A stretch of DNA of 59,917 nucleotides. It comes from an uncultured Gammaproteobacteria bacterium. GTDB lineage: Bacteria > Patescibacteriota > Microgenomatia > CAYXHB01 > CAZYTL01. This document shows positions 1,784 through 3,598 of this stretch, in pieces. The translations under genes were made by a program, and so were the position numbers. Position 1 is the first letter of the stretch; each line of letters begins with the position of its first letter. Under the pieces are notes generated by a model. It did not search any database. It had not been told where the DNA came from and was given only the letters and a program-made list of their open reading frames with translations. The DNA lies in NCBI GenBank assembly GCA_964650355.1, contig CAZYTL010000010.1, positions 1-59,917 on the forward strand. The letters are read 5' to 3'.

Positions 1784-3598
1784 ATGAAAATTGAGCTAAT
1801 CGAGGCAAAAGAATACAAACCGATAAAAAATCTAAAGATTACCAATTTAGGGGATATAGTAATTATTGCAGGTGCCAATGGTTCAGGGAAAACGAGATTA
1901 AAGGAAGCAATAGTAAAAACTTTTCAAGGAACCCCACTACTAGGATTAAGAGTTAAAGCCACACGGCAAGAAGAGCGAGAAGCTTTTGGAGATGAAATTA
2001 TAGAAGCAACTCAAGGACAACGTAATACTTTATTAAATCAATATATGAGCAGTCGGAGATTTGGTAGAGGAAGATATGTTGGATCTTTGGTCCAAATTGA
2101 TTCTGAAAGGAATATTCAAACAACAACTTATAATCAAATTAGTTGGCAAGTTAGTGATCCGGATGATGAAGAAACCCCGAGTAATTTTTATTACCAAAAT
2201 TTCACGAATAGATGGCAAAATTTTATGAACTATATTCATCAAAAAGTAGCTGCTTATCAAAACAAATTAGCAACTGCTGTGTTATCAGGATCATCTGAAA
2301 CTGCTGACCAAATAAAATTACAATTTCCACATCCATTACAAAAATACAAGGATATTTTTACTCAATTACTACCAGATAAAGAGTTACAAGAAATCAATCC
2401 AGCAAATCCTGAAGAGTTTAAGTATAAAGATAGAGAAGGTGCGATACTTCCATTTAGTTCTTTAAGTTCAGGTGAACAGGAGGTCGTTAAAGTAATATTT
2501 GATGTTGCAAGGAAGGATATAAAACATTCTGTCATCATTTTAGATGAACCAGAATTACACCTTCATCCAACATTAACATTCAAATTAATTGAAACACTTA
2601 AGAGTATTGGCGATCACACGAATCAATATATTTTTTTGACGCATTCTGCTGATCTAATTTCTACTTATTATTCTACAGGTAATGTCTATTTTATTGATTT
2701 TGAGCAAACAGGTGCAAACCAGGCACATCAATTAAGTGAATTAAATCGAAGTCATAGTGAGTTAGTTAAATTGATGGGTGAAAATTTGGGAATTTTTGCA
2801 GTCGGCAAAAAACTAATTTTCATTGAAGGAGAACAGGCAAGTATTGATCAGCTAGCCTACAATGCTATTGCGCAGAGATTCTTACCTGAAGCTAGGGTTG
2901 TTTCTGTTGGTTCTGTTGACAATTTAGTTACATTAAGTTCGTTTGAGGAACAAATTCGAAATACCATTTTTGGGATTGACCTATATATGATTCGGGATAG
3001 AGACGGACTAAGTGATGACCAAATCGGATTATTAGAAAGAAGTGGCAGATTAAGATGTTTAAAAAAGAGGCATTTAGAAAATTATTTTTTAGATGCTGAA
3101 ATTTTATACAAAGTGGCGGAAAAATTGTATATTATTGATGCAAGAACAGAGGTGACGCAAGAATTTATCAGACAAAAGATTGAAGAAATTGCCATGAGTT
3201 CATTAAACCTCAACTTACTTCAAAATACCAAAGAGTATTTAGGGTTAAATTTTAGATTTAATGTTCCAACAGTTAAAGCGATTGATGAGAAGGAAATCCG
3301 AGTGATTAAAAAAGAGTTGTTATCTAATGTACAGCTATCTTTAAGTAGTTTGTCAGTTAATCTGGACCCGACAAAACTAAGAAAGTGGATTGATGATGAA
3401 GAAAAAAGGCTTGAACAAACCCTACATGATGGATCATGGAAAGATGAATTTCAGGGAAAATATATTTTCGCTCAAATTTGTGGTGATATTTTACATGAGG
3501 ACCAAATTAAAGTTAGACATGCATTTGTCGATATAGCTTTGGAAGAAAAACCAGAAGTATTTAGTGATATTAAGGAAATATTTGAAAGTTTTAAATAA
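1784..3598 (+). CDS. Fused ABC-type ATPase / TOPRIM (DUF4435-like) protein, OLD / AbiL-Rlo / PARIS AriAB-like
   Basis: 604 aa. Walker A GANGSGKT (aa 30-37), signature-like LSSGEQ (227-232), Walker B VIILDEPELHLHP (250-262) and LTHS. The C-terminal half has LIFIEGE (344-350), MIRDRDG (402-408) and RHLENYFLD. The gene is AT-rich, and its stop overlaps the hsdS start (TAATG). Confidence 0.7.
   Translation: MKIELIEAKEYKPIKNLKITNLGDIVIIAGANGSGKTRLKEAIVKTFQGTPLLGLRVKATRQEEREAFGDEIIEATQGQRNTLLNQYMSSRRFGRGRYVGSLVQIDSERNIQTTTYNQISWQVSDPDDEETPSNFYYQNFTNRWQNFMNYIHQKVAAYQNKLATAVLSGSSETADQIKLQFPHPLQKYKDIFTQLLPDKELQEINPANPEEFKYKDREGAILPFSSLSSGEQEVVKVIFDVARKDIKHSVIILDEPELHLHPTLTFKLIETLKSIGDHTNQYIFLTHSADLISTYYSTGNVYFIDFEQTGANQAHQLSELNRSHSELVKLMGENLGIFAVGKKLIFIEGEQASIDQLAYNAIAQRFLPEARVVSVGSVDNLVTLSSFEEQIRNTIFGIDLYMIRDRDGLSDDQIGLLERSGRLRCLKKRHLENYFLDAEILYKVAEKLYIIDARTEVTQEFIRQKIEEIAMSSLNLNLLQNTKEYLGLNFRFNVPTVKAIDEKEIRVIKKELLSNVQLSLSSLSVNLDPTKLRKWIDDEEKRLEQTLHDGSWKDEFQGKYIFAQICGDILHEDQIKVRHAFVDIALEEKPEVFSDIKEIFESFK

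Follow-up and report, generated by a model that had tools for sequence, protein, structure and literature searches.

A predicted single-chain PARIS-type ATPase-TOPRIM gene carried between hsdM and hsdS of a type I restriction-modification operon

A type I restriction-modification (R-M) operon at the start of a 59,917-nucleotide (nt) stretch of contig CAZYTL010000010.1 (assembly GCA_964650355.1; this whole stretch is referred to as the window) carries an additional gene between hsdM and hsdS. The gene (1784..3598, + strand) begins with ATG and encodes a single chain of 604 amino acids (aa), a fused AriAB-like protein in which an ATPase half is followed by a TOPRIM half. Sequence comparison places it as a divergent single-chain PARIS protein (an AriA-AriB fusion), on a DUF4435 branch within the wider group of ABC-ATPase plus TOPRIM (OLD-like) proteins. 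We favour, with fair confidence, a role in abortive infection: the protein would be a single-chain nuclease of the PARIS type, and its gene would be cargo in a variable slot of the operon.

Assignment to fused AriAB

The protein was compared with PADLOC models both whole and as separate halves. The fused AriAB model PDLC02981 matched the whole protein at 1.8e-49 (167.1 bits), and PDLC02982 gave 58.5 bits. Taken by halves, PDLC02981 matched the N-terminal half at 2.7e-29 and the C-terminal half at 2.2e-17 (61 bits, profile positions 421-666 of 694). Three families in all matched the C-terminal half, the other two being the second AriAB model (8.6e-5) and, weakly, the candidate PDC-M62B (1.1e-3). 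On the whole protein, for which the best 25 of 118 families were listed, the AriAB model stood far above PtuA, AriA-only, MADS, GajA, AbiLi and Old, whose matches lie only or mainly in the ATPase. A preliminary description of this DNA had called an ABC ATPase joined to a Glu/DxD TOPRIM domain of the DUF4435/AriB kind. The match of the C-terminal half alone to AriAB bears this call out.

The ariAB system was described in 2022 both as a two-gene cassette and as a single-gene fusion, and hidden Markov models (HMMs) were built for the fusions (Rousset et al. 2022; PMC9122126). The thresholds set for these fused profiles are 80 bits (AAA_15+DUF4435) and 20 bits (AAA_21+DUF4435). The protein qualifies as a fused AAA+DUF4435 protein on these terms, the PADLOC models being assumed equal to the Rousset HMMs. 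It resembles the fused AriAB of that study and of DefenseFinder/PADLOC in that both halves match the model and the catalytic Glu/Asp set is kept. It differs in that its branch lies beyond detection by Pfam DUF4435 and in its length, 604 aa against 694 profile positions.

The two-gene and fused forms are restated by Burman 2024 and Belukhina 2025. The preliminary description treated the protein as a compact single-polypeptide variant and as a candidate for an uncharacterised defence module; the single-polypeptide form is not new, the fusion having been on record since 2022 (PMC9122126) and being modelled in defence-finder tools. The literature search found no paper testing a fused AriAB and none on DUF4435 in hsd loci. 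The gene appears to be a divergent addition to a known, experimentally untouched PARIS sub-type.

The gene and its borders

The ORF (open reading frame) lies in the same orientation as hsdM (228..1748, +) and hsdS (3598..4824, +). The preliminary description had it wedged between these two genes, and its coordinates proved exact; translation and alignment numbering likewise put all of its listed motifs at the residues given. These are GANGSGKT (30-37), LSSGEQ (227-232), VIILDEPELHLHP (250-262) and LTHS (285-288) in the N-terminal half, and LIFIEGE (344-350), MIRDRDG (402-408) and RHLENYFLD (429-437) in the C-terminal half. The overlap of the stop codon with the hsdS start, also reported earlier, is real and can be read in the sequence as TAATG (3596..3600, +), with TAA at 3596-3598, ATG at 3598-3600 and 1 nt shared. 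At the same junction in relatives there is a 1-nt overlap (locus L081), a 4-nt overlap (L001) or a 16-nt gap (L084).

The spacer between hsdM and the ORF is 35 nt long. A Shine-Dalgarno-like purine-rich stretch was read from the sequence in this spacer (AAAGGAAAA; 1771..1779, +); it ends 4 nt before the start codon, with AGGA 7 nt upstream of the ATG. A promoter and terminator scan of the locus returned no more sites than were found in shuffled sequence, and an internal promoter or terminator at the ORF was dropped for this reason. No terminator-like site was present at the ORF borders.

A total of 711 database proteins matched the ORF at E (expected value) less than or equal to 1e-3. The best 120 of these showed 96-100% query coverage and 56-68% identity and were 586-640 aa long (nearly all 599-621 aa). 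With matches so numerous and the best near full-length, the ORF is clearly a real gene. NCBI labels the homologues only as 'AAA family ATPase'.

The ATPase half

An ABC/SMC-type ATPase domain occupies aa 1-317 (1784..2734, +), as delimited by Pfam, PDB profile match, Foldseek and conservation. On the same strand, its motifs comprise Walker A (G30-T37; nt 1871-1894), the motif residue Q104, the signature (L227-Q232; nt 2462-2479), Walker B (V250-E255; from nt 2531) and the H-loop H287 (nt 2642-2644). The Pfam families AAA_21 (8.2e-17, 62.6 bits, cut-off 27) and AAA_15 (3.6e-14, 53.6 bits, cut-off 32.1), both named beforehand as candidates, matched above threshold, in residues 1-300 only.

A broad family profile of 52 members (A3) was searched against the PDB. 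It matched the AriA structures 8ux9/8v45 at 3.7e-23, and only a retron-associated PtuA-like ATPase scored higher. The full-length AlphaFold2 (AF2) model of the protein had a mean predicted local distance difference test (pLDDT) score of 81.8. In a Foldseek search with this model, PtuA and ATPases of retrons ranked highest, and the OLD nuclease of Eco8 was also returned. Because the ATPase dominated this list, the search was rejected as a test of the C-terminal half, on which it was uninformative, and a separate model of that half was needed.

Conservation was scored in 56 full-length relatives. K36 was present in 55 of them, and G35, G230, E231, D254, E255 and H287 in all. With about 317 residues against the 464 aa of AriA, the ATPase is approximately 150 residues shorter and therefore has a short insert separating the Walker A and signature motifs, one much shorter than that of AriA.

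The C-terminal half

The TOPRIM core, a predicted divergent DUF4435 domain, occupies aa 340-440 (2801..3103, +) and was delimited from the model, conservation, PADLOC and the presence of DUF4435 in remote relatives. It is followed by an all-helical C-terminal bundle (aa 441-604; 3104..3595, +) with a pLDDT of approximately 85-95 in the AF2 model. When residues 318-604 were modelled separately with AF2 (pLDDT 81.2), four strands were seen to alternate with helices in a TOPRIM-like manner, ahead of a long helical bundle. The core strands are 343-347, 370-374, 400-404 and 423-425. W552 and G558 are conserved in the bundle; AriB likewise ends in a C-terminal helical bundle (PMC10802264).

The TOPRIM acidic residues, all on the + strand, are E348 (nt 2825-2827), D405/D407 (nt 2996-3004) and E432 (nt 3077-3079), together with D355. 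E348, G349, D405 and D407 were invariant in all 56 relatives, down to approximately 17% identity, so the expectation that the Glu and Asp residues would be conserved held for E348, D405 and D407. D355 was found in 51 of the 56, and E432 and N433 in 52. The active site of AriB consists of E26, D30, D88, E90 and E122 (PMC10802264). E348/D355/D405/D407/E432 match this set by order and spacing, not by direct alignment. The conserved TOPRIM positions were not among the peptide patterns used for fetching loci. Conservation of DEPELHLH was discounted as evidence because this peptide was itself one of the patterns. The ATPase motif set is complete, and the TOPRIM acidic set is under strong purifying selection.

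Remote relatives were collected with a C-half profile from 1.84 billion representative sequences. The search, which was exhaustive, returned a family of modest size, 537 clusters, mostly of fused proteins of 600-700 aa. Three remote relatives scored above the Pfam DUF4435 gathering score (P0199, 30.4 bits; P0223, 27.4 bits; P0269, 31.5 bits), and one of the three also weakly matched OLD-like_TOPRIM. Two different C-half profiles were used, A4 and A5. In A4, which comprises 21 remote relatives, 12 matched DUF4435 at E less than or equal to 0.01, the best at 5.2e-9. Among the 120 listed homologues, P0108, a member of the close-homologue alignment A1, was the sole one with a precomputed PF14491 entry. 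The C-terminal half is accordingly described here as a predicted divergent DUF4435-type TOPRIM nuclease with a helical tail, support for DUF4435 membership coming solely by way of intermediate relatives.

The hsdM-hsdS junction as a cargo slot

Close relatives of the window HsdM were sought in metagenomes, which gave 80 loci with 48-82% HsdM identity. The AriAB-like gene was absent from all 80. Where HsdM was at least approximately 65% identical, a gap of 0.9-6.5 kb was still present between hsdM and hsdS. In approximately two thirds of the relatives with 48-57% HsdM identity, hsdS followed hsdM directly. All loci with a gap together contributed 55 gap ORFs of 100 aa or more, which fell into approximately 35 unrelated protein clusters.

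For annotation, 36 proteins were taken, each cluster being represented by one or two. Matches were obtained to ThsB TIR (three), ThsA Macro, RhuM, SMODS cyclases, Abi_alpha, DUF4238, Shedu SduA_C and Schlafen/AlbA_2, and further to UvrD helicase, AAA_21, PemK, DUF2130, Bro-N and KilA-N. Many clusters had no annotation (junction 1749-3597 in the window; loci L091-L128 and L152). The other cargo of the slot is overwhelmingly defence-related. In this hsd lineage the junction thus serves as a variable slot for defence cargo, with the AriAB-like gene as one alternative among many.

Because the slot carries so many alternative cargoes, embedding alone is no proof of a specific guardian relationship. 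The preliminary description had proposed that the protein acts as a back-up guarding this type I system. That proposal now stands as analogy only: the slot also holds Thoeris, RhuM, SMODS, Shedu and Abi genes, and two close homologues stand alone. A guardian role for this R-M system is plausible on that footing.

Distribution and context of homologues

Homologues of the protein were found in candidate-phyla bacteria, which make up a large share of the close ones, and in Bacilli, Pseudomonadota, Bacteroidota and archaea. The cassette of half-size hsdS, hsdM, ORF, hsdS and hsdR also surrounds P0004 (67% identical), P0050 (65%) and the homologue in L001 (64%). Between the window and window-type cassettes (L001, L081, L084), HsdM was 73-82%, HsdR 57-71% and the ORF product 64-67% identical, and HsdS only 31-32%. 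The window-type cassette is on these figures conserved and co-inherited.

Two further homologues are embedded differently. P0058 (61% identity) lies in an EcoEI-type system (L087) with the order M, ORF, x, S, x, R. P0099 (59% identity) lies in a system with a 788-aa HsdM (L089) and the order M, S, ORF, x, R. HsdM of these two loci is only 24-26% identical to that of the window. Their embedding represents independent events in unrelated type I families, so homologues of approximately 60% identity are found in at least three such families. Two of the seven close homologues with examined context, P0039 (65%) and P0090 (58%), stand alone among ordinary genes with no R-M genes within 8 kb. Among 43 full-length relatives in GTDB species-representative genomes, eight had type I R-M within 10 kb, and in four of these (L001, L010, L019, L021) the gene was in the operon. 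The survey of neighbourhoods called for earlier therefore gave a divided answer: embedding in type I operons recurs, and there are also stand-alone homologues, while most GTDB relatives have no R-M within 10 kb. The association with type I R-M is strong but facultative.

Some relatives appear decayed. L006:10001-11702 and L050:10001-11529 align in pieces, which suggests frameshifts. The longest ORF in L007:2023-3828 is 277 aa, and L038:10001-12806 is split by an insert of approximately 1.6 kb. Such decay would be in keeping with a gene that is costly or toxic.

A distant ATPase-TOPRIM-type relative of 543 aa (L078:10001-11632; approximately 18% identity) lies between hsdS and hsdR of an operon that has RhuM between hsdM and hsdS. 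L010 (6626-7630) has the order R, M, RhuM, S, followed by an AriAB-like gene. From these two layouts, some hsd operons carry several embedded cargo genes at once.

The operon and the remainder of the window

The genes of the operon, all on the + strand, are in the order half-size hsdS, hsdM, ORF, hsdS, RhuM fragment, DUF3800 gene and hsdR. The half-size hsdS is represented by its 3' end (1..222). It matches Pfam Methylase_S weakly and residues 118-183 of a 189-aa half-HsdS from L081 at 36% identity (E 2e-14). Its frame is open from base 1, and the gene is therefore cut by the window edge. The methyltransferase subunit gene hsdM matches N6_Mtase (1.3e-102) and HsdM_N (5.3e-21). The full-length hsdS, with two target-recognition domains, matches Methylase_S in two stretches (2.6e-34). 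There are thus two specificity genes, a half-size one 5 nt upstream of hsdM and a full-length one downstream, and the same arrangement was seen in L001, L081 and L084. The restriction subunit gene hsdR (5863..9063) is apparently intact (SWI2_SNF2 1.2e-71, HSDR_N 2.7e-33, T1R_D3-like 7.6e-22).

Two small genes lie between hsdS and hsdR. The first (4829..5089) encodes an 86-aa N-terminal fragment of the RhuM family, with a match to PADLOC PDC-S05 at 2.6e-32 over residues 8-77. Full-length PDC-S05 proteins correspond to Pfam Virulence_RhuM and are approximately 330-360 aa long; the window fragment covers the first 70-80 residues or so. Its end overlaps by 17 nt the start of the second gene (5073..5783), a DUF3800 gene (Pfam DUF3800 3.1e-8) and PADLOC PDC-M04A candidate (2.1e-9). 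The fragment is probably what is left of an earlier cargo gene that the DUF3800 gene displaced. Another DUF3800 gene is encoded on the other strand (11015-11701, -), 2 kb beyond hsdR; BLASTP detected no similarity between the two (E 0.38).

The remainder of the window (9064-59917) is ordinary chromosome, with genes for MltG, MgtE, GDP-mannose dehydratase, FemAB-like proteins and PMT_2 and GT2 glycosyltransferases. A tRNA-Pro gene is present at 31423-31496. The 23 window proteins scanned included no integrase. Each protein looked up was the sole member of its 90%-identity cluster, which points to an uncultured host lineage lacking close relatives in the protein collection searched.

Base composition

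The GC content of the AriAB-like ORF is 0.326 and its GC content at third codon positions (GC3) is 0.218, the lowest among the 42 window ORFs of at least 200 aa (mean GC 0.438, standard deviation 0.041). The corresponding GC/GC3 values are 0.419/0.473 for hsdM and 0.379/0.381 for hsdR, in agreement with the earlier remark that the ORF is the more AT-rich. The AriAB-like gene was also AT-rich relative to hsdM, hsdR and the locus in all seven homologous loci (L001, L081, L084, L086-L089), stand-alone ones included, with GC3 of 0.18-0.32. AT-richness is common to the gene family in every host examined and is therefore no sign of recent arrival here. As a mark of recent insertion it was rejected, all seven loci being AT-rich and the window-type cassette co-inherited. 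Low expression of a toxic gene and frequent transfer are possibilities as its cause. Relative to its neighbours, the AT-richness of the gene resembles that of hsdS.

Proposed mechanism

The literature used for the mechanism and for prior description comprised PMC9122126, PMC11464382, PMC10802264 and PMC12409363. By analogy with the systems described there, the ATPase half would hold the nuclease half inactive in the uninfected cell. A phage-derived trigger, which for E. coli PARIS is a DNA-mimic anti-restriction protein such as Ocr, would then bring about an ATP-dependent rearrangement. The TOPRIM domains would pair and cut nucleic acid, either tRNA, the target of AriB, or DNA, that of OLD, after which translation or growth would halt and the infection would be aborted. 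If the protein is indeed a PARIS-type nuclease, we would give an anti-restriction protein roughly one chance in three of being its trigger, and tRNA somewhat less than even odds of being its target.

The reference two-gene system (E. coli B185; AriA WP_001007866.1, AriB WP_000093097.1; PDB 8ux9, 8v45-49) has an ATPase homologous to that of the ORF, as seen with profile A3, and shares with it the TOPRIM plus helical-bundle effector layout and a similar spacing of acidic residues. It differs in being made of separate parts, so sequestration in an AriA6:AriB3 complex followed by release cannot apply as described to the fused protein. Since the halves are covalently joined, the published release-and-dimerise step cannot apply literally, and activation would have to take place within the molecule or an oligomer, with a nuclease that cannot leave its ATPase scaffold. 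The location differs too: E. coli PARIS was found in the P4 satellite hotspot and the ORF is in an hsd operon.

The protein probably works alone, its position among the hsd genes giving co-expression and co-transfer and no obligatory physical partnership. The stand-alone homologues and the embedding in unrelated hsd families favour such autonomous action. A related case is HEC-04, a single-protein ABC ATPase with a C-terminal TOPRIM domain that is embedded in another defence system and validated as defence (Payne et al. 2024 preprint). Its host system is Hma and not type I R-M, and it was absent from the three families that match the C-terminal half and, for the whole protein, from the 25 top-ranked families listed out of 118. 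The same preprint described PARIS inside other defence systems (BREX was discussed), as well as embedding in type I R-M generally. The hsdM-hsdS slot fits the picture that the preprint calls 'guilt-by-embedding', and its authors suggest as well that Ocr, by blocking the host system, could set off an embedded PARIS.

RloA/RloB of Campylobacter hsd loci and AbiLi/AbiLii also combine an ATPase with a TOPRIM-like nuclease. RloAB is located within type I R-M loci (PMC10802264), and the AbiLi ATPase model matches the ORF at 1.7e-14. Each of these systems has two genes where the ORF is single, and the AbiLii and RloB models miss its C-terminal half. The comparison with AbiL/RloAB and P2 Old drawn in the preliminary description is consequently upheld for the ATPase half and finds no model match in the C-terminal half.

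Several results weigh against a PARIS-type nuclease. Pfam DUF4435 (PF14491) and OLD-like_TOPRIM (PF20469) matched neither the whole protein nor the C-terminal half at E less than or equal to 10. The same was true of Pfam RloB, which also gave no match when the 30 close homologues of alignment A1 were scanned, a scan in which DUF4435 and OLD-like_TOPRIM were likewise absent. The expected hmmscan matches to DUF4435, RloB or an OLD-type Toprim family thus failed to appear, and direct Pfam assignment of the C-terminal half to any of the three was rejected. The C-half profiles A4 and A5 had no PDB match at E less than or equal to 10, AriB included. Searches of the PDB with phmmer and with profiles A1 and A3 listed no AriB chain, their lists being filled by ATPase matches. 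All attempts to reach AriB by sequence (phmmer and profiles A1, A3, A4 and A5) therefore failed.

Nor did the fold search reach AriB, which was not within the Foldseek top 50 for the C-half model. The best five matches were all OLD-family TOPRIM regions (6njw, 6njv, 6njx, 6nk8 and Eco8 9lpa), and these were weak (E 9e-3 to 4e-2, template modelling score 0.23-0.36, probability 0.75-0.98). The TOPRIM fold anticipated earlier was to this extent recovered, through weak proximity to OLD-family regions, with AriB itself out of range. In a BFVD search the best match was a RloB-like protein at E 0.1, which is non-significant. Because Pfam, the PDB profiles and Foldseek all miss it, the link to the studied AriB goes through intermediates. 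The shorter ATPase means in addition that the hexameric propeller architecture need not apply. Finally, as the literature search found no tested fused AriAB, the trigger, the target and even the defence phenotype are extrapolated.

Alternative explanations

An OLD- or GajA-like DNA nuclease is the first alternative to be weighed. Such an enzyme would nick or degrade DNA under the control of nucleotide levels, DNA ends or RecBCD status and would have no link to R-M or anti-restriction. OLD and GajA have the same fused architecture, and single-chain ABC ATPase plus TOPRIM proteins are found throughout the OLD family (Class 1 P2 Old/TsOLD 6p74; Class 2 GajA; Class 3 retron Eco8). The ORF has the Class 1 architecture, and stand-alone homologues exist. 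In fold, the C-terminal half comes closest to the OLD TOPRIM regions of Xanthomonas and Burkholderia and to retron Eco8 OLD. Sequence similarity also extends from the ATPase into the first TOPRIM motifs for PADLOC GajA (1e-14, residues 222-415), ATPase-Toprim_I-B and the NCBIfam retron Eco8 effector, and the PDB profile search showed the same for GajA and Eco8. Some homologues are named 'ATP-dependent endonuclease of OLD family' by JGI, and a 2023 review of OLD proteins considered it unclear whether fused AriAB forms an OLD class of its own or is Class 1-like (PMC10568477).

Set against this, the C-terminal half alone matches the fused AriAB models and not the Old, GajA, HEC or retron TOPRIM models. 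Pfam OLD-like_TOPRIM misses the protein, and the PADLOC Old match is limited to residues 244-319, inside the ATPase. No GajB UvrD-like helicase and no retron adjoins the ORF; HsdR is the only helicase in the locus. The intermediate relatives are DUF4435 proteins. We therefore regard an OLD/GajA-like nuclease as unlikely, though it is the strongest competitor of a PARIS-type protein.

A guard resembling PrrC is less likely again. Here the protein would be silenced by binding the HsdM/S/R enzyme of its own operon and would fire when a phage inhibitor disables R-M, so that the state of the R-M system is sensed and not the inhibitor. PrrC, proposed as a second defence line when restriction is blocked (PMC12707154), follows this logic: its ABC ATPase is N-terminal, its nuclease is C-terminal, and its gene lies inside the hsdMSR operon. 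The overlap of the ORF stop with the hsdS start could couple stoichiometry, and embedding in type I operons is repeated. The nuclease of PrrC/RloC is an anticodon-nuclease domain, however, unrelated to the TOPRIM domain of the ORF, and PrrC was neither among the best 25 of 118 PADLOC families listed nor among the three for the C-terminal half. PrrC/RloC are found almost exclusively in type I R-M loci, whereas the ORF family is often outside them: close homologues lack R-M within 8 kb, and for most GTDB relatives no R-M is found within 10 kb. The clade of approximately 60% identity is spread over three hsd families, in two of which HsdM is only 24-26% identical to that of the window, and it occupies different places in them (M|S, M|x|S and S|R). 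With such different Hsd partners and positions, specific protein contacts are unlikely, and a PrrC-like model is disfavoured. The slot moreover holds cargo without known R-M dependence, Thoeris, SMODS and Shedu among it.

A non-defence function, whether in housekeeping as an SMC/RecF-like ATPase for repair or as a selfish addiction module stabilising the hsd cassette, would accommodate the weak Pfam SMC_N and RecF-type similarity of the N-terminal half and a fused protein without demonstrated phenotype, but is very improbable given the patchy spread over distant phyla and archaea, the presence/absence polymorphism in otherwise conserved hsd cassettes, the decayed copies in L006, L007 and L038, the defence-type neighbours and the specific match to the AriAB models.

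Significance

The preliminary description was right on the domains and the family and overstated the novelty and the guardian role. Pfam sees the ATPase half only, and recognition of the C-terminal half as a divergent DUF4435 TOPRIM domain would give a widespread family a concrete function. The hsdM-hsdS slot, with approximately 35 alternative families of which many are unannotated, is a ready source of candidate defence genes.

The published PARIS release mechanism is inapplicable to a covalent fusion. A compact member such as this one, of 604 aa, would serve well for testing whether fused AriAB differs from Class 1 OLD. The fused halves exclude release of AriB from an AriA hexamer, so a distinct activation within the molecule may be used. 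Residence in three unrelated type I operon families could further mean that R-M inhibition is itself monitored, in which case the protein would be more than travelling cargo: a guard of the PrrC kind with a TOPRIM tRNase as its nuclease. We consider this bolder combination a long shot. If true, it would bear on a point from the 2023 OLD review, namely whether fused AriAB forms an OLD class of its own with a mechanism to match.

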